NCBI GenBank assembly: GCA_964393515.1
Contig: CAYMTY010000007.1
Coordinates: 15,710-79,709, forward strand
Direction: 5' to 3'
DNA from: an uncultured Verrucomicrobiota bacterium
Lineage (GTDB): Bacteria; Verrucomicrobiota; Kiritimatiellia; CAIQIC01; Lenti-01
Length of the DNA: 64,000 bases
This document shows positions 5,527-62,766 of this stretch, piece after piece (within the stretch, counting starts at the first letter, position 1; each line of letters starts with the position of its first letter). The notes below the pieces were generated by a model. It saw only the letters and a program-made list of their open reading frames with translations. It did no database searches and was not told the origin of the DNA. The position numbers and the translations under genes are program-made.

Positions 5527-5606
5527 ATTTTTCCACACTGTGGTCCGGCAGGCGCCGGATCCATTGTGTGGAAAAATCTGGAAACATTTTTCCATTGCAT
5601 GGAAAA
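5527..5606. repeat. TTTTCCAC..TGGAAAA palindromic repeat cluster, copy 1
   Basis: ATTTTTCCACAC...GTGTGGAAAAAT inverted repeat plus TTTTTCCATTGCATGGAAAA, between convergent genes. Confidence 0.8.
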
Positions 5607-17552: not shown

Positions 17553-17688
17553 GTTTTTCCACGCTATGGTCCGGCAGCTGCCGGATTTTCCACGGGGTGG
17601 AAAACTACACCACTTTTTCCCGTACCATGGAGAGTATTTTCGCAGATTTTCCACGCCATGGAAAACTTTTTTCCACGGGGTGGAAAAC
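17553..17688. repeat. TTTTCCAC..TGGAAAA palindromic repeat cluster, copy 2
   Basis: TTTTTCCACGCTATGGTCCGGCAGCTGCCGGAT, TTTTCCACGGGGTGGAAAA (twice), TTTTCCACGCCATGGAAAA. Confidence 0.8.
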
Positions 17689-51086: not shown

Positions 51087-52082
<996 letters not shown>

Positions 52083-52084
52083 TC

Positions 52085-52128
52085 CCGACCGGAGGTCTTC
52101 CCCTATTCTGAAATCTGACTTCTGAATC
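52085..52128. repeat. REP-like fragment plus reverse AGAAGTC-type heptamers
   Basis: CCGACCGGAGGTC followed by TATTCT-GAAATCT-GACTTCT-GAATCC between moxR and the DUF58 gene. Confidence 0.45.
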
Positions 52129-52140
52129 CGGGCTGCACCC

Positions 52141-53012
<872 letters not shown>

Positions 53013-53016
<4 letters not shown>

Positions 53017-54092
53017 GCCGATCTCTTCCAGCGCGGTTTTTCCACACAATGGAAAAAGGTTTCGCGGTTTTTCCACACTATGGAAAAAAGTTTTCCATAG
53101 TGTGGAAAACTTCCGCTTTCGGGCTGGCCGTCGCCGGCCTGGCGGCCTGTTCCAAGCCCGCGCCGCCGCCGCCGGCCCTTCCCGCCGGAAAGAATTTTTC
53201 GATCACCGCCGAGATGTCCACCAACCGGATCCGCATCGGCGACCTCGTGGACGTCACCCTGACCGCCCTGCACCGCGAAGGAACCGTCGTGGGCTTTCCC
53301 AATCCCGCCCAGGGCAAGGACGTCATCGTCCGCGACGCCCAGACCGCATCCGAAGCCCTGCCCAACGGCCTGCGGCGCACCGTGCAGAAGCTGCGCCTGA
53401 CGTCGCTGACCGTCACCAACCACATCATCGGCGAGCAGGCTGCCATTACCATTTCCACGCCGCAAGGTTTGCAGTGGACCAATTCCTATCCGTTCCTTTC
53501 GCTAGAAGTGGTCTCGGCGTTGCAGCCCGGCGAACAGGACATCCGGCCCGCCAAGGGCGGCCTGGCGCATTGGCCGCCCCCGCCGTCGCGCTGGCTTTGG
53601 GTCGCGCTGGCCGTGCTCGCCATTCTCGCCGCCGCCTTCCTCGCGCTGCGCAAAATCCTGACCACGCCGCGCACCATCCTGCACCTGGCCCCGCCGGTGC
53701 CGCCCCATGAAATCGCCCTGAACGCCCTGGCCGACCTCCGGGGGAAAGGCTGGATCGAGGCGCTCAAGATCGAGCCGTTCTACGTTGCGCTCTCCGGCAT
53801 CGTCCGCCGCTATCTCGAGGGCCGCTTCGGCCTGCGCGCCCCCGAACGCACCACCGAGGAGTTCATCCGCGACGCCCTCACCTCCCGCACGCTGTCCGAC
53901 GTCCACCGCGAGCTCGTGGCCGGCTTCCTCGAACAGAGCGACCTCGTCAAGTTCGCCCGCCACGCCCCGGGGCCGGCCGACATGCGCAACGCCCTCGATT
54001 CCGCCGAACGCCTGGTTCGCGAAACGATGCCCGTTGCCGCCGCGCCCGCGCCGCCTCCCGCGGCAAATCCGTCTCCCGGAGGGGCGGCATGA
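53013..54092 (+). CDS. Bat-operon-associated lipoprotein/membrane protein with repeat-encoded N-terminus
   Basis: GTG overlaps the DUF58 stop; lipobox GLAAC; TM segment; RRYLEGRFG..APERTTEE and DLVKFA motifs typical of genes between DUF58 and batA. Confidence 0.8.
53036..53110. repeat. TTTTCCAC..TGGAAAA palindromic repeat cluster, copy 3 (inside CDS 5' end)
   Basis: TTTTTCCACACAATGGAAAAA, TTTTTCCACACTATGGAAAAAA, TTTTCCATAGTGTGGAAAA. Confidence 0.8.
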
Positions 54093-55069
54093 TCATCTTC
54101 CGCCATCCGTTGTTCCTGCTGCTTCTGCTGCTGGTGCCGGCGCTGGCGTGGCTGCGGCATGCCCGCCGCCGCCGGGCGCCGCTGGCCTTTTCCGACGGCG
54201 CGGCGCTGCTTGGCCTGCCGCGTTCGCCATGGCTGGCCCTGCGGCACCTGCCGCCCGTCTTGTTCGCCGCGGGACTCGTTTTCCTGGTCGTGGCGGCCGC
54301 CCGGCCCCAGAAGGGCATGAGCGAATCGCGCGTCGAAACCGAAGGCGTGGACATCGTTCTGGTCGTGGACACCTCCACCTCCATGCGGGCGGAGGACTTT
54401 TCCACGGCCATCCAGCGCATGGACCGCCTCGGTGCCGCCAAATCGGTCATTGGAAAATTCATCCAGGCCCGGCCCGACGACCGCCTGGGCATCGTGGCTT
54501 TCGCCGCGATGCCCTACACCATCGCGCCGCTGACCACCGACCACGCGTGGCTGATGCTCCAGATGGACCGCCTGCAGACCGGCATGCTCGAGGACGCCAC
54601 GGCCATCGGGGATGCCATTGCCTCCGGCGTCAACCGCCTGCGCGATTCCAAGGCCAAGTCCAAGATCGTGATCCTGCTCACCGACGGCATCAACAACGCC
54701 GGACGCATGACGCCGCAGGACGCCGCGCAGGCCGCCGCCGCCCTCGGCATCAAGGTCTACACCGTTGGCGCGGGCTCCGACCAGCCGCGGACCGCCGGCA
54801 TCTTCGGCTTCATGCAGGCCGGCGGGGAAATAGACGAAGCGACGCTCAAGAAGATCGCCGAGATCACCCGGGCGAAGTATTTCCGCGCCACCGACCTGAA
54901 GAGCCTGGAAGAGACCTACCAGGCGATTGACCAGATGGAAAAAACCAAGATCGAGCTCGACCAGTACACGCGCTACGAGGAGAAGTTCGCGCCGTTCCTC
55001 GTGCTGGGGTTGCTGTGCCTCGGGCTAGAAACGCTGCTGGGCGGCACCCGCCTCGGGAGGCTGCCGTGA
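54089..55069 (+). CDS. batA: BatA-like vWA domain membrane protein
   Basis: N-terminal FRHPLFLLLL, ARPQ, DTSTSM (MIDAS), PLTTD, TAIGDA, ILLTDG, KVYTVG. Confidence 0.9.
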   Translation: MIIFRHPLFLLLLLLVPALAWLRHARRRRAPLAFSDGAALLGLPRSPWLALRHLPPVLFAAGLVFLVVAAARPQKGMSESRVETEGVDIVLVVDTSTSMRAEDFSTAIQRMDRLGAAKSVIGKFIQARPDDRLGIVAFAAMPYTIAPLTTDHAWLMLQMDRLQTGMLEDATAIGDAIASGVNRLRDSKAKSKIVILLTDGINNAGRMTPQDAAQAAAALGIKVYTVGAGSDQPRTAGIFGFMQAGGEIDEATLKKIAEITRAKYFRATDLKSLEETYQAIDQMEKTKIELDQYTRYEEKFAPFLVLGLLCLGLETLLGGTRLGRLP

Positions 55070-56079
55070 AATGGGGCCAGATCCAGCTTTTGTACTGGCT
55101 GCCGCTGGCGCTCCCGCTGGCGTGGGCGCTGTTCGCCCTCCTGCGACACCGGCGCCGCGCGCTGGGACAGGTGGTGGCTCCGGCCATGCTGCCGGTCCTC
55201 GCCCCGGCCTGGAATCCCGGGCGGGCGAAACAGCGCCTGGTCCTGCGGATCCTCGCCCTGACGCTGCTGGTCGCCGCCCTCGCCCGCCCGCAATGGGGCT
55301 TCCACTGGGAGGAAGTCCGCCGCAAGGGCCTCGACCTGATGGTTGTCCTCGACACCTCGCGCTCGATGCTGGCGGCCGACATCAAGCCCTCGCGCCTCCA
55401 GCAGGCCCAATGGGGCGTGCGCGACCTGCTGCGCAACCTGCGCGGCGACCGCGTCGGCCTGGTGCCCTTCGCCGGCGCATCGATCCTCCAGTGCCCGCTG
55501 ACCATCGACTACGCCGCGTTCGCCATGACCCTGGATGATCTTTACAGCGGCATCATCCCGCGCGGGGGCACCGCCATTGAACAGGCGCTGCGCACGGCCA
55601 TCCAGGCTTTTCCCGAAAGCGGCACCGCCGACCGCGTGATCCTGCTCATCACCGACGGCGAAGACCACGAAGGCGATCCACTCGCCCTCCTGCCCGAGCT
55701 GAAGGAAAAGAGCATCCGCGTCTACACCATCGGCATCGGCACCCTCGAAGGCGAAATGGTTCCCGCCGGCGACGGCCGGGGCGCGTACTTCAAGGACCGC
55801 CAGGGCCAGGTCGTCAAGACCGCGCTGAAGGAGGACGTGCTGCAGAAACTCGCGCTGGGCACCGGCGGCACCTATGTCCGCTCCGCCCCCGGCGACACCG
55901 GCCTCGAACGCGTCTTCCGCGAAAGCATCGACAGCCTCAAGCGGGCGGAGCAGGAAACCCGCACGGCCAAAATCTTCGAAGAGCGCTTTCCCTGGCCGAT
56001 CGCGGCCGCCTTCCTGCTGCTGGCCTGGGAAGCCCTGCTTTCCGACCGGCGGAAACCGAATGCGGAGGCGGGCGCATGA
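55066..56079 (+). CDS. batB: BatB-like vWA domain membrane protein
   Basis: GTG overlaps the batA stop; ARPQWG, DTSRSM, PSRL, DRVGLVPFAG, ITDGEDHE, IGIGT. Confidence 0.9.
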   Translation: MKWGQIQLLYWLPLALPLAWALFALLRHRRRALGQVVAPAMLPVLAPAWNPGRAKQRLVLRILALTLLVAALARPQWGFHWEEVRRKGLDLMVVLDTSRSMLAADIKPSRLQQAQWGVRDLLRNLRGDRVGLVPFAGASILQCPLTIDYAAFAMTLDDLYSGIIPRGGTAIEQALRTAIQAFPESGTADRVILLITDGEDHEGDPLALLPELKEKSIRVYTIGIGTLEGEMVPAGDGRGAYFKDRQGQVVKTALKEDVLQKLALGTGGTYVRSAPGDTGLERVFRESIDSLKRAEQETRTAKIFEERFPWPIAAAFLLLAWEALLSDRRKPNAEAGA

Positions 56080-57077
56080 AGGCAAGAGGTCAGAGGACAG
56101 AGGACAGAGATCAGGGTTTAGGTAGGGCGAGGCGTCCCCGCCGAGCCGGGCTGTTCCCTTGGATGTTGAAGATTGGATATTGGATATTGAACATTGATCT
56201 TCTCCATTCCCGGCTCACCGGGACGGTTCGCCCTACCTGTTTTGCCCTCGCATTTTCGCTTCTGATGATGTGGGGGGCATATCCCGCGAAAGCCGCCGAG
56301 CCTTCTGCGCGGACTTCGTTCAACGCGGGCCTGCAGGCTTTCGCCGCCAGCAACTATCCGTCCGCCACCAACGCCTTCCTCGCGGCGGCCGCCGCGGCGC
56401 CCGCGGAAAAGCTCGATCCCGCGGCCGCCTACTACAACGCCGGCCTCGCCGCCTATGCCGGCGGCGACTTGCCGGCCGCCGCCGCCGCCTTCGCGCGCGC
56501 CGGCGCCGGCACCGATCTGGGCCTGCAGGCCCGGGCCTACTACAACCGTGGCAACGCCCTCTTCCACCAGGCCGGCGGCCCCGCCGGCATGCTGCAAGCC
56601 GGTGCCGCCCCGCTGCCGGCGATGTCCACGCAGGAGCTGGCCGCCGCGGAATCCTCCGTGGGCGAGGCCGTCCAGATGTTCGAAAACGCCATCGCCCTCG
56701 ATCCCCAGGACGAAGACGCCAAAGCCAATTACGAACTGGCCATCCTGAAACAACAGCAGCTCCAGCAGCAGAAACAGCAGCAGCAAAATCAGCAAAAACA
56801 GGACCAAAAGCAGGAGGACCAGAACGACCAGCAGAAGCAGGACCAACAACAGCAGCAACAAGAGCAGCCGGCGGAGCAACAACCCCAGCCGCAACCCCAA
56901 TCCCAGGACAACCCGCAGAAACCGGAGGAGCAGATCCAGGAAGAGAAACCATCCGAAGAGATGACGCCCGAAGAGGCCGCGATGATGCTGGATGCCATGA
57001 AGGCGCAGGAGCAATCCCAGCGCGACCAGCTCCATCCCTTCTTCGGGCGGCCCGTCCCGGTGGAAAAAGACTGGTAG
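56076..57077 (+). CDS. batC: BatC-like TPR protein with Gln-rich linker and repeat-encoded N-terminus
   Basis: AYYNAG and AYYNRGNALF TPRs, DAKANYELA, poly-Q tract, MTPEEAAMMLDAMK...VEKDW C-terminus. Confidence 0.85.
   Translation: MKARGQRTEDRDQGLGRARRPRRAGLFPWMLKIGYWILNIDLLHSRLTGTVRPTCFALAFSLLMMWGAYPAKAAEPSARTSFNAGLQAFAASNYPSATNAFLAAAAAAPAEKLDPAAAYYNAGLAAYAGGDLPAAAAAFARAGAGTDLGLQARAYYNRGNALFHQAGGPAGMLQAGAAPLPAMSTQELAAAESSVGEAVQMFENAIALDPQDEDAKANYELAILKQQQLQQQKQQQQNQQKQDQKQEDQNDQQKQDQQQQQQEQPAEQQPQPQPQSQDNPQKPEEQIQEEKPSEEMTPEEAAMMLDAMKAQEQSQRDQLHPFFGRPVPVEKDW
56085..56112 (+). repeat. Four AGAG(G/A)(T/A)C heptamers inside batC 5' end
   Basis: AGAGGTC-AGAGGAC-AGAGGAC-AGAGATC. Confidence 0.75.
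56120..56238. repeat. GTAG REPIN-like inverted repeat with nested GGATATT heptamers
   Basis: AGGTAGGGCGAGGCGTCCCCGCCGAGCCGGG ... CCCGGCTCACCGGGACGGTTCGCCCTACCT; spacer contains GGATGTT-GAAGATT-GGATATT-GGATATT-GAACATT. Confidence 0.75.
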
Positions 57078-57106
57078 CAAGGTCTTGTCCCGGTAAAGTA
57101 CACGCC

Positions 57107-58897
57107 ATGAAAGCCCCGATCCAACCCGCGAAGAACCTGGCGGGCGTCTTGGCGCTCGTTTTCGCGTGGTTGCTTCCGGCCGGCGCCATGGACGTGACGT
57201 TCGACGTCCAGCCCCGCCTGCTGAACCTGGGCGAGACCGCCCAGGCGACCCTGGTTTTCCACGGCGTGCGCAACGCGCCGGCCATCGAATTTCCGCAAAT
57301 CCCCGGGTTGCAGATCACCGGCACCGGGCAGATGTATCAGAACATCAACGGAGCTTCGAGCGTCCGCCTGGGCTACAACTTCTTCCCTCAGAAGGCCGGC
57401 AGTTTCACCATCGGCCCCTACGCGCTCGAGTTCAACGGCGAGCAGATCCAGATCCCCGAGGTGAAACTCGAGGTGCGCGCGCCGGCCGGCGGCGACTCCC
57501 CGGCCGAAATGCTGTTCGCGCGCATGCAGCTGCCGGACACGCCCCCCTACATCCACCAGGTCTTCGACATCGTCCTCAGCCTCTACGCCCTGCCCGGCGT
57601 GGAACTGGCCCGCGAAGTCAACCTGCTCGGGGGCTTCCCCGAGTCCGGCTTCATCATGGGGAATTTCGAAGAGCTCCAGACCGTGCGCGAGGAGGTCAAC
57701 GGGCGGTTCTACACGCTGCGCCGCTTCCGGGCCCGCGTCCGCGCGTTGACCGCCGGCGCATTCCCGCTGCAGCCCGCCCTGCGCGCGGGCGTGGTCGACC
57801 GGAACCAGGCGCGCCAGCGCCGCGATCCCTTCGGCGGCTTCTTTGACGATCCCTTTTCCGGTCCGGTTGCCAATCCCGTCAACGTGGCGATTCCGGCGGC
57901 CACGCTGGAGGTCCGGCCGCTGCCGGAGGAAGGCCGCCCGGCCGACTTCACCGGCGCCGTCGGCCAGTTCGAGCTGGCCGTGGACGTCCGCCCGCGTGAA
58001 TTGAAGGTCGGCGAACCGGTCACGGTCACCCTGCGCCTGCAGGGAGCGGGCAACATCGCCGCGGCGCTGCCCCCCGCCTATCGCGACAGCGACGCCTTCA
58101 AGGCCTACGAGGCGCGTCAGGTCGGCGACACGCCGGCTCCGACCGCCGAGGGGGGCGCCAAAGCCTTCGAGCAGGTGGTCATTCCGCGCACCGAGAACCT
58201 GAAGGAACTGCCGCTGTTGCAGTTCTCCTTCTTCGATCCGGTTGCGGGACGGTACCGTTCGGTCGCCGCGGGGCCTTTTCCCCTGACGGTGCATCCGTCC
58301 GAAAACGGCGCCAACGCCCTGCTTTTGCAGGTGCCCGGCCATGCGGCCGCCGGCGGCAGTTCCCTGGTGCTGGGCAGCGATATTGTGTATCTCAAATCCG
58401 CCCCTGCCCGCTGGCGCAACGGCCGCGGCTGGGCGGCGCACCCGGCCCTTCTGATCGGCCTGCATGCCGCCGCGCCGCTGGTGCTGGCCGGCCTGTTCCT
58501 TGCCGCCCGCCGCCGCAACCAGCTGGCCACGGACCTCGCCCTGGCCCGCCGCCAGAAAGCACCCCGCAGTGCGCGCGCCAACCTGCACCAGGCGGAAGCG
58601 GCCTGGAAGGCCGGGGGCGCGCCCGGCGCCGTCTTCACGTTCCTGGCCGCCGCCGTGTCCGATTATTTCGGCCACCGGCTCAACCTGGCGCCCGGCGCCG
58701 TGGATGCCCCGCTCATCCTCGGCAAACTCCAGGCCGCCATGACCGATGAAACCACCCTCGCCCGGTGGCGGGAATTCTTCGCGCTGTCCGACCAGGTCCG
58801 CTACGCTTCCGCATCCGACCTTTCCCGCGCCGCGCTCCAGGAATGGATTACCACCGTCGCCACCCTCCTGCGGAAGGCGGAAAGGGTGAAGCTGTGA
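57107..58897 (+). CDS. batD: BatD-like protein
   Basis: Signal peptide, tandem Ig-like domains, VRPLPEEGRPADFTGAVGQF, FSFFDP, C-terminal TM segment. Confidence 0.88.
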   Translation: MKAPIQPAKNLAGVLALVFAWLLPAGAMDVTFDVQPRLLNLGETAQATLVFHGVRNAPAIEFPQIPGLQITGTGQMYQNINGASSVRLGYNFFPQKAGSFTIGPYALEFNGEQIQIPEVKLEVRAPAGGDSPAEMLFARMQLPDTPPYIHQVFDIVLSLYALPGVELAREVNLLGGFPESGFIMGNFEELQTVREEVNGRFYTLRRFRARVRALTAGAFPLQPALRAGVVDRNQARQRRDPFGGFFDDPFSGPVANPVNVAIPAATLEVRPLPEEGRPADFTGAVGQFELAVDVRPRELKVGEPVTVTLRLQGAGNIAAALPPAYRDSDAFKAYEARQVGDTPAPTAEGGAKAFEQVVIPRTENLKELPLLQFSFFDPVAGRYRSVAAGPFPLTVHPSENGANALLLQVPGHAAAGGSSLVLGSDIVYLKSAPARWRNGRGWAAHPALLIGLHAAAPLVLAGLFLAARRRNQLATDLALARRQKAPRSARANLHQAEAAWKAGGAPGAVFTFLAAAVSDYFGHRLNLAPGAVDAPLILGKLQAAMTDETTLARWREFFALSDQVRYASASDLSRAALQEWITTVATLLRKAERVKL

Positions 58898-59670
58898 AAA
58901 CCAGAGAGGTCAGAGGTCAGTGGTCAGAAGTCAGACTGGCCGGGATTCTGTGCTTCGTGTTGGCCCTCGGGGCAGCCCATGCGGCGCCCGAGCGGGAAAC
59001 CCGCTTCGAGCGCACCTTTGCCGACGCGGCGCGGGCCTATGATGAGAACCGGCTGCCGGAGGCCATCGCGGGCTGGCAGGCGCTGGTGGACGAAAACCAG
59101 GCGCTGCCGGAAGTGCTGTTCAATCTCGGCAACGCCTATTACCGCCATGGCCAACTGGGCGAAGCCATGCGGGCCTACCGCGCGGCCCAGCGCCGCGCGC
59201 CACGGGATCCCGACCTTCGCGCCAACCTGGGTTTCGCGGCGCAGTCCGCCGGTGTTGTCCTGCCCGTGCGCGGTCCGCTGGCCGGACTGCTGCTGGATTT
59301 CAGCCGCGGGGAATGGCTCGCGTTCGGTACGGGCGTTTACTGGCTGCTGGCGGCGGTGCTGGCGGGCTGGATCCTGCGGCCGCGTTTTCGCGCCCTGGCC
59401 CGCCCGCTGGCGGCCGGGCTGGCGGTCCTCCTGCTGCTGGCGCTGGCCGGATTGTACGCCCACTACGACCTCCAGCAAATTCCCGAATGCGTGGTCATGG
59501 CCCCCGACCAGCAGGTGCGGTCCAGCCCGCTGGAAACCGCCACGCCGCTGCTGGCGATCCCCGCCGGCGCCATCGTCCGCCAGCTGGATGAACGCGGCAG
59601 CTGGCGCGAAATCCGCTACGACACGGTTCGCGGCTGGCTCCCCGCCGCCACCCTCGCCCGCGTGCCGTGA
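58894..59670 (+). CDS. batE: BatE-like TPR + SH3 protein with heptamer-encoded N-terminus
   Basis: GTG overlaps the batD stop; VLFNLGNAYYR, PRDPDLRANL, two TM segments, SH3-like WREIRY..VRGW. Confidence 0.85.
   Translation: MKTREVRGQWSEVRLAGILCFVLALGAAHAAPERETRFERTFADAARAYDENRLPEAIAGWQALVDENQALPEVLFNLGNAYYRHGQLGEAMRAYRAAQRRAPRDPDLRANLGFAAQSAGVVLPVRGPLAGLLLDFSRGEWLAFGTGVYWLLAAVLAGWILRPRFRALARPLAAGLAVLLLLALAGLYAHYDLQQIPECVVMAPDQQVRSSPLETATPLLAIPAGAIVRQLDERGSWREIRYDTVRGWLPAATLARVP
58905..58932 (+). repeat. Four AGAGGTC-type heptamers inside batE 5' end
   Basis: AGAGGTC-AGAGGTC-AGTGGTC-AGAAGTC. Confidence 0.75.
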
Positions 59671-60032
59671 AATCTCGACTGTCCACCTTTCTGCGGAACG
59701 ATTGGCGGTGGCGTCTGGCCCTGCTCGCCTTTGCCGGATTCACGTATGTCGTCGTATTCGAACCCTGCGGCTCCCGCCGTCCGCCGGCGCCGATGCAAAA
59801 TCCGGCGCCCCCGGCCGCGGAAGCCGTCACCGCTGCCGATCCGGACCATCCGCCGGTCATGGATGAAGAGGACTGCTTGCATTACACCGTGCAGGACGGA
59901 GACACGGTGGAGTCCATCGCCCGCCTCTTCGTCGTTCCCGAAGCCGCCATCCGCCGCCAGAACGGCTTTTCCCCCGATGAAGAGGTCGCCTCCGGCCGCC
60001 GGATCCTCATTCCCCCGTCCGAGCGGTTCTAG
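59667..60032 (+). CDS. Membrane-anchored LysM protein
   Basis: GTG overlaps the batE stop; TM segment; YTVQDGDTVESIARLF...RRILIP. Confidence 0.8.
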   Translation: MKSRLSTFLRNDWRWRLALLAFAGFTYVVVFEPCGSRRPPAPMQNPAPPAAEAVTAADPDHPPVMDEEDCLHYTVQDGDTVESIARLFVVPEAAIRRQNGFSPDEEVASGRRILIPPSERF

Positions 60033-62672: not shown

Positions 62673-62766
62673 ATCTCAATATCCAACACCCAACATCCAA
62701 TATCCAATGGAACAGCCGGGCGGTTCACCTGAAAATTGGGCGGTGGATATTGGATATTGAAGATCT
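62673..62766. repeat. Inverted array of AATATCC/GGATATT heptamers
   Basis: AATATCC-AACACCC-AACATCC-AATATCC ... GGATATT-GGATATT-GAAGAT between aspS and the ABC ATPase. Confidence 0.75.

Follow-up and report, generated by a model that had tools for sequence, protein, structure and literature searches.

How can repeats accumulate at gene junctions where one start codon overlaps the preceding stop codon, and are such repeats translated? The question is raised by the MoxR/Bat operon at 50.8-60.0 kb of a 64,000-nucleotide stretch of DNA (the window) from an uncultured Verrucomicrobiota bacterium of the Kiritimatiellia (assembly GCA_964393515.1, contig CAYMTY010000007.1, positions 15,710 to 79,709). 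The window has a G+C content of 66%, and its closest relatives are metagenome-assembled genomes (MAGs) labelled Kiritimatiellia or Verrucomicrobiota, of bioreactor and wastewater origin. Of the eight operon junctions, six consist of a 4-nt ATGA or GTGA overlap. At three of them, which precede a lipoprotein gene designated G1, a batC-like gene and a batE-like gene, repeats lie between the overlapped start and the hydrophobic core of a signal peptide. Our analysis indicated that these multi-copy repeats are, with good confidence, translated in frame as extra, probably disposable leader sequence of cleavable signal peptides.

The original prediction placed the starts of G1, BatC and BatE on the preceding stop codons and had each gene read in frame through repeats ahead of its hydrophobic core. 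Both statements agreed with the sequence (Table 1), and the leader peptides it quoted match exactly: FFHTMEKGFAVFPHYGKKFSIVWK in G1, RGQRTEDRDQ...KIGYWILNID in BatC and REVRGQWSEVR in BatE. The further claim that each gene carries a different repeat family held in part. The TTTTCCA palindromes lie in the G1 leader, and BatC and BatE have TCAG-type heptamers in common. The TTTTCCA-N5-TGGAAAA palindrome has seven copies in the window, with none expected from shuffled sequence, and the second and third units of the G1 leader form a 19-bp hairpin (fold z -6.3). In the BatC leader, GGTAGGGCGAGGCGTCCCCGCCGAGCC at 56121-56147 is paired with an inverted partner that ends ...CGCCCTACC at 56237, the repetitive extragenic palindrome (REP) itself being GGTAGGGCGAGGCG. 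As in other REPs, GTAG stands at the 5' end of a GC-rich palindromic unit of 20-40 bp, whose arms are conserved in six copies; as in REP doublets forming hairpins (REPINs), two inverted REPs and a spacer give one long hairpin, which folds at -69.2 kcal/mol (z -5.6). The BatE heptamer array forms no hairpin (fold z -0.9). Every leader ends in a hydrophobic core, namely SAFGLAVAGLAAC with its lipobox in G1, CFALAFSLLMMWGAYPAKA before AEPS in BatC and LAGILCFVLALGAAHA before APE in BatE. Judged by eye and with a Kyte-Doolittle scan, the signal peptides have a positive amino-terminal part, a hydrophobic core within the usual 7-15 residues and an AxA or lipobox motif, and the motifs AKA/AEPS, AHA/AP and LAAC align with the cleavage motifs of repeat-free orthologs.

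The window was compared with 18 syntenic operons, one genome per species. For each junction, the upstream stop codon was located, along with a conserved position in the mature part of the downstream protein that served as anchor, and the start-to-anchor distance was taken. This gave 45 focal instances (13 DUF58-G1, 18 BatB-BatC and 14 BatD-BatE). An ATG or GTG lies on the upstream TGA in all 45, and the distance to the anchor is always divisible by 3, across 36 distinct lengths from 54 to 273 nt (G1, 123-216 nt, 12 lengths; BatC, 57-273 nt, 14 lengths; BatE, 54-117 nt, 10 lengths). If the leaders were non-coding, the joint probability of the kept phase would be below about 1e-15, counting 1/3 per length change and discounting one ancestral state per junction. 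Control spacers that also contain repeats have mixed phases (5/2/4 for MoxR-DUF58 and 9/3/3 for BatC-BatD). No stop codon interrupts the coding frame in 1,940 leader codons; the same codons contain 62 and 38 stops in the other forward frames, with the upstream genes' own stops excluded, and 56 in each reverse frame.

The starts themselves were equally consistent. Every overlapped start has a Shine-Dalgarno-like motif (GGGAG, GGAGG or GAAAGG) 7-10 nt upstream, with GGGAG at 8-9 nt in 13/13 G1 instances and GGAGG at 7-9 nt in 18/18 BatC instances. Eight of the ten repeat-bearing BatE leaders, that of the window included, and the BatC leaders of two relatives (L009 and L012) lack any other canonical in-frame start that would leave a charged amino-terminal region (n-region) and a core; in the BatE gene of the window, none lies ahead of the hydrophobic core. 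In some relatives the core itself (ILHSSFFILNF) is encoded by a TTCATTC array (G1 of L003, L008 and L017; BatE of L008 and L009), so that these proteins would have no signal peptide unless the repeat were translated. The original prediction depended on translation not starting downstream of the repeats, and the overlapped codons, all in the frame of the mature protein with no in-frame stop, are in keeping with it. A TTCATTC array was also seen in an unrelated gene upstream of the operon in L011 (4187-4260), where it is read as FLILHSSFLI within an N-terminal hydrophobic segment.

Repeats are tolerated at some junctions and in one orientation. All 15 TCAG-type arrays within open reading frames (ORFs) have the stop-free orientation, and all five arrays in the MoxR-DUF58 spacer (window and four relatives) have the CTGA orientation, in which every frame contains stops. 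Repeats were found at 34 of the 45 overlapped junctions before cleavable signal peptides and at 0 of 34 where BatA (MIIFRHPLFLLLLLL) or BatB (MKWGxxxLLxWLPLAIPLAW) begins with a conserved, uncleaved membrane helix. The leaders are under purifying selection for frame, openness and orientation. The proposal that signal-peptide n-regions act as a safe haven for several element types is largely supported by the frame, the absence of stops, the controls and the division between permissive and non-permissive junctions. Genome-wide enrichment in n-regions was approximated by controls within the operon and by about 65 palindrome clusters on metagenome contigs.

The BatD signal peptide carries no repeat in the window and is a fourth host in relatives. 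In BatD of L001 (4799-4963), L005 (11730-11921), L006, L007 and L008, other GC-rich hairpin repeats are read in frame (PDPRGLxPRVNQ...). In L010, L011 and L017, the BatD start codon lies between the arms of a hairpin (CTCGCCAAGGACGCCAAG ... CGTCCTTGGCGTTCTTGGCGAG), whose right arm is read as ASLAFLAR.

The same arrangement was found outside the operon, on metagenome contigs. Hand checks of five unrelated genes placed palindromes directly ahead of the hydrophobic core in an open frame. An overlapped ATGA or GTGA start followed by 2-9 in-frame palindromes and then a hydrophobic region (h-region) or lipobox is present at L022:1139-1216, L035:11416-11527 and L125:10352-10669, and the L125 leader reaches about 105 codons. 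The last palindrome is read as FSTxWK, an acid-free, Lys-ending peptide, in five of six independent genes, a preference that fits selection for a positive n-region, in a small sample. At L132:3789-3851, three palindromes lie within a gene, and the sequence to either side of them is coding-like and shares their frame (...TVEGGGAG-FPRNGKKFSTVWKKVFHGVEK-PVFRAAGG...), in the manner of an internal insertion of a Rickettsia palindromic element (RPE).

Alignment of orthologs gave the shorter N-termini that were expected of repeat-free genes: these start at the same overlapped codon and have signals of 18-25 residues. Repeat-free BatC has MKRLLSLAACAALAAVSVRA before AEP (MKRLL...A/AEP) in L002, L006, L008, L014-L016 and L018. 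Repeat-free BatE has VKRLICIPIFLVLLAATALA before APE in L002, L005, L007 and L014, the four BatE instances without arrays; the other 10 of the 14 have them. Short lipoprotein signals occur in distant members of the 597 G1 homologs found and in a few close ones (P0047, P0059 and P0062). L002, the closest relative by identity, has no repeats at either the BatC or the BatE junction. On a poorly resolved tree of BatA and BatB, in which 4 of 16 branches have support, genomes with and without repeats are intermingled; the tree shows this mixing and gives no count of gains and losses. At least six families fill the leader slots across the clade, drawn from TTTTCCA palindromes, their TTTTACGT..ACGTAAAA dialect, TCAG, CAATATC/TTGGATA and TTCATTC heptamers, the GTAG REPIN and an GGGGTCAGTCCTATGATTTAATG element (RGQSYDLM) that is present in relatives and absent from the window. 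The leader peptides are therefore not conserved independently of the DNA repeats, since several orthologs are repeat-free and others have different families at the same site.

Several observations bear on mobility. The GTAG REPIN, with its variable TTGGATA loop, occupies the BatC junction of the window, L003, L005 and L017 and lies inverted at the G1 junction of L004 and L005. Its opposite orientation at the two junctions, seen across different genomes, indicates that it is mobile. Loop lengths differ between copies by 21 nt, or three heptamers. The original prediction also had the same families in intergenic DNA elsewhere in the window; this is correct for palindromes and heptamers, and the GTAG REP arm has a single copy there. 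Evidence that the arm is multi-copy comes from metagenome contigs, in which depth rises about 14-fold over the REP arms and at least eight different flanks were counted; other organisms contribute to both depth and flanks. Over the palindromes the depth spike is about 30-fold, with many contigs of different flanks, and a scan of the metagenome contigs found at least 120 palindrome stretches, mostly GC-rich contigs with clusters of 2-9 units. The heptamers and AT-rich palindromes may be selfish, and a REP-associated tyrosine transposase (RAYT) is a plausible mobilizer of the REPIN.

Sequence change within the palindrome family was observed at the G1 junction of L001 (702-824) and L006 (8950-9072), where TTTTACGT-TCT-ACGTAAAA palindromes replace TTTTCCAC..GTGGAAAA. 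The first unit there is chimeric, its left arm being new and its right arm old. Both arms have changed in a compensatory manner, a sign that the family may evolve in concert. The sequence TTTTCCACA fits the relaxed DnaA box TTWTNCACA; this assignment was rejected because the family is dispersed and because the L001/L006 subclade has TTTTACGT..ACGTAAAA in that place.

Taken in order, the proposed mechanism would run as follows. The Bat/MoxR operon is translationally coupled by its 4-nt stop/start overlaps, and at least three kinds of repeat (REP-like AT-rich palindromes, the GTAG REPIN and heptamer arrays) collect at gene boundaries in this lineage. At an overlap, the only DNA just past the stop is the first codons of the next gene. 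An insert between the start and the core would survive if its length were a multiple of 3, if it were free of stops in the frame used and if the n-region stayed net positive. A ribosome arriving from the upstream gene would re-initiate at the overlapped codon, unwind the hairpins and read the repeat as a lengthened n-region, and in some relatives the repeat would supply the h-region as well. Signal peptidase I or II would then cut away the whole leader, so that the mature protein would be unchanged. The inserts would, on this account, probably be neutral passengers.

Several points weigh against this account. Translation of the repeats from the overlapped codon is strongly inferred from sequence, and cleavage of the leaders by signal peptidase I or II is predicted. 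The G1 and BatC leaders of the window contain internal in-frame starts (ATG 53049, GTG 53100, ATG 56163 and TTG 56187), because of which some molecules could initiate inside the repeats; the gene caller itself placed the G1 start at ATG 53049. A BatC leader of 73 residues, or hairpins of -50 to -70 kcal/mol directly after the start, would be unusual and might carry an expression cost. Palindromes are present at the G1 junction in 13/13 instances examined at the DNA level (window and 12 relatives), a constancy that looks more like long residence or function than recurrent selfish insertion. When about 65 palindrome clusters from the metagenome were sorted by G+C content at the three codon positions (GC1/GC2/GC3), about 47 were classed as intergenic, by a crude classifier that mislabelled L022, L121 and L125 and is semi-quantitative only.

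Internal starts would also be expected if the repeats were untranslated spacer, with the genes starting downstream and the open frames a consequence of the 66% G+C. Spurious frames of great length are indeed common in the window, and many N-terminal REPs were judged extragenic by Di Nocera et al. 2013 (PMC3733652). Such a spacer would not hold phase in 45/45 instances while the control junctions are mixed, nor lack stops in a coding frame for which the density in the other frames predicts about 46; for most BatE leaders with repeats no alternative start is available, and in some relatives the hydrophobic core is repeat-encoded. Present evidence leaves this explanation almost no room, and we consider it very improbable. 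The heptamer arrays could instead be phase-variation switches, in which 7-nt slippage toggles exported proteins, as the length of their unit is not divisible by 3 and the arrays fall within leader-coding sequence. The precedent is the Neisseria opa genes, phase-variable genes with a CTCTT coding repeat in the leader-peptide region, and the resemblance extends to short tandem repeats translated within a signal peptide. Unlike opa, none of the 45 assemblies is out of frame, the units are imperfect and few (3-5 copies), and copy number differs in steps of three units (21 nt). The arrays thus resemble frame-preserved passengers rather than switches, and switching is extremely unlikely here. Misassembly, in which collapsed repeats or chimeric joins at these sites entered the MAG, has in its favor that de Bruijn contigs break at palindromes and REP arms. 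The same architecture recurs in 18 independent assemblies from different studies, and contigs of sequencing runs X3, X6 and X9 span the BatC and BatE junctions with 0-1 differences, so the chance of an artefact is negligible.

A different kind of alternative is that the repeats are functional RNA or DNA elements of coupled junctions, either hairpins or heptamers bound by a protein, acting in coupling, mRNA stability or processing, with translation secondary; this is compatible with translation. The G1 palindromes, present in 13/13 instances, including proteins with identity as low as 55%, and in every case with the last unit directly against the core, favor it, as do the strong hairpins (z -5.6 to -6.3) and the compensatory TTTTACGT..ACGTAAAA dialect of L001 and L006, in which the palindrome is maintained while its sequence changes. 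Heptamer arrays also end right at the start codons of other junctions, like TAACTGA repeats (PMC4679880). Against a junction function stand the presence, absence and swapping of unrelated families at the BatC and BatE junctions of close relatives, the unstructured BatE array, the occurrence of the same families between convergent genes and the lack of sequence conservation beyond the family-defining part. Overall it is unlikely, and the long residence at the G1 junction and the compensatory dialect point toward a hairpin role in coupling or mRNA fate there. More tentatively, the translated leaders could have been put to use: the repeats would serve as a stock from which export signals are made (Lys-rich FPxxGKK-FSTxWK n-regions and TTCATTC cores), hairpins would enforce one-to-one coupling of exported subunits and signal peptides would be a general harbor. 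A hairpin past the overlapped start would then make initiation depend on a ribosome from the upstream gene, and cleavable signal peptides would let non-autonomous repeats persist in tightly packed operons. We regard this extension as possible but doubtful. The reading of the repeats as translated, probably disposable leader sequence remains the one that we prefer.

Translated repeats of this kind have partial precedents. RPEs (Ogata et al. 2000) are described in PMC10969869 as in-frame palindromic inserts in protein genes, and N-terminal RPE-1 fusions are reportedly expressed (PMC3733652). Like RPEs, the palindromic repeats described here are multi-copy elements inserted in ORFs in frame and without stops, to be translated with the host protein; they have no sequence relation to RPEs and come from another phylum (here Kiritimatiellia). 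RPEs are found at various internal sites and remain part of the mature protein, whereas the present inserts concentrate in the part predicted to be cleaved, and several unrelated families, plain tandem heptamers included, share one slot. In the catalogue of intragenic GTAG REPs by Di Nocera et al. 2013 (PMC3733652), the verrucomicrobium Opitutus terrae accounts for most entries; copies at ORF N-termini were in excess, and many of these were suspected to be non-coding. In contrast, the frame statistics presented here show N-terminal copies to be coding. GTAG REPs and REPINs are mobilized by RAYT transposases (Bertels and Rainey 2011, PMC3116915). The BatC element resembles them in its GTAG-tagged GC-rich inverted arms and spacer, its probable presence in several copies and its different sites in different genomes, and it differs in a spacer that holds a variable heptamer array.

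The heptamers are closest to the TAACTGA-type direct repeats of Beggiatoaceae, Cyanobacteria and Bacteroidetes, which are intergenic, lie upstream of starts (MacGregor 2015, PMC4679880) and were proposed as post-transcriptional regulators; that paper makes no mention of signal peptides. Shared features are tandem heptamers with a CTGA core in 2-6 copies, mostly just upstream of starts, indels in 7-nt steps, and a forward orientation with stops in all frames whose reverse is translatable. The MoxR-DUF58 spacer arrays (ATTCTGA, CTCTGAC, TACTGAA/TACTGAC) are of this type, and the in-ORF arrays are their reverse complement. The TAACTGA unit itself was not matched, the units here being GGTCAGA, GGACAGA and ATTCAGG, and a further difference is the use of the reverse (TCAG) orientation inside ORFs as signal-peptide sequence. 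In-frame repeat insertion is known. Full-text searches of the literature yielded no paper linking REPs, REPINs, MITEs (miniature inverted-repeat transposable elements) or heptamer repeats with signal peptides, and we found no description of a signal-peptide niche used by several repeat families.

Table 1 Genes and repeats of the MoxR/Bat operon, with repeat copies elsewhere in the window
Feature	Coordinates	Strand	Remarks
MoxR ATPase gene	stop 52080-52082		
Heptamer array, CTGA orientation, untranslated	52105-52127	+	MoxR-DUF58 spacer; stops in all frames; control junction
DUF58 gene	52141-53016	+	Pfam PF01882, E 2e-76; TGA 53014-53016 overlaps G1 start
G1, lipoprotein precursor	53013-54092	+	GTG start 53013; lipobox Cys46 at 53148-53150
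Three TTTTCCA-N5-TGGAAAA palindromes, G1 leader	53038-53056, 53069-53087, 53091-53109	+	Read as FFHTMEK, FPHYGKK, FSIVWK
BatA	54089-55069		
BatB, von Willebrand factor A (VWA) domain	55066-56079	+	GTG 55066 overlaps BatA stop; TGA 56077-56079 overlaps BatC start
BatC-like tetratricopeptide repeat (TPR) protein precursor	56076-57077	+	ATG start 56076; 73-residue leader; predicted cleavage AKA/AEPS after 56294
TCAG-type heptamer array, BatC leader	56085-56109	+	AGAGGTC AGAGGAC AGAGGAC AGAGATC, read as RGQRTEDRDQ
GTAG REPIN-like inverted repeat, BatC leader	56121-56237	+	Arms 56121-56149, 56210-56237; read as GRARRPRRAGLFPWMLKIGYWILNIDLLHSRLTGTVRPT
TTGGATA heptamer array in loop of BatC GTAG REPIN	56159-56197	+	
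BatD	57089-58897	+	TGA 58895-58897 overlaps BatE start
BatE-like TPR/SH3 protein precursor	58894-59670	+	GTG start 58894; predicted cleavage AHA/AP after 58983
TCAG-type heptamer array, BatE leader	58905-58935	+	AGAGGTC x4.4, read as REVRGQWSEVR
LysM protein	59667-60032		
Single palindrome, TTTTCCA family	5588-5606	.	Intergenic, between convergent genes
Cluster of three palindromes, TTTTCCA family	17586-17687	.	Intergenic, between two minus-strand genes
CAATATC/TTGGATA heptamer hairpin	62677-62759	.	Intergenic, between aspS and ABC ATPase gene

The remaining features of the operon and its surroundings are less directly tied to the leaders. The BatC-like protein has a weak NCBIfam BatC match, and G1 has no Pfam or NCBIfam match. 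The longest BatB ORF begins at 55015 and would overlap BatA by 55 nt (55015-55069), and the real start is GTG 55066; this overlapped start is kept as (A/G)TGA in 16 of 17 instances, followed by MKWGxxxLL. BatC contains a long Gln-rich low-complexity stretch at 56749-56868, encoded by CAG/CAA repeats (QQQLQQQKQQQQNQQKQDQ...), near which, at 56896, a 6-nt deletion is present in one strain of run X10. In L007, L008 (8733-10001) and L017, an additional secreted protein of 422 residues with C-terminal TPRs is encoded between G1 and BatA, with ATGA overlaps at both ends; the window is without it. Downstream of aspS, the heptamer hairpin is kept just outside the start codon of the cytoplasmic ABC ATPase in L005, L009 and L017 as well. 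In the MoxR-DUF58 spacer of L014 (7769-8050), a 59-residue ORF with no Pfam or NCBIfam match lies between inverted TCAG/CTGA heptamer arrays in a cassette-like arrangement, at the site where the window has the right-hand array only (52105-52127). Runs X3, X6, X7 and X8 are labelled METATRANSCRIPTOMIC; they hold contigs of more than 200 kb with even depth across the operon, and are therefore most likely DNA and unfit as expression evidence.

If the repeats are indeed translated as disposable leader sequence, this would be a new rule for the persistence of repeats in compact bacterial genomes, which would be kept in the part of the coding sequence predicted to be cut off, and it would explain how repeats build up at overlapped junctions that seem to have no room for them. 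Where secreted proteins in MAGs of the Planctomycetes-Verrucomicrobia-Chlamydiae (PVC) group have long, odd N-termini, these are probably genuine, and annotation should not cut them back to a downstream start; signal-peptide predictors are likely to miss leaders lengthened by repeats. For this lineage, the results give an answer to what PMC3733652 left undecided, namely whether a REP at an ORF N-terminus is coding. The relatives also form a natural mutagenesis series, in which n-regions with 0 to about 100 extra residues precede the same mature proteins, and which could show how far a bacterial n-region can be extended and still be tolerated.

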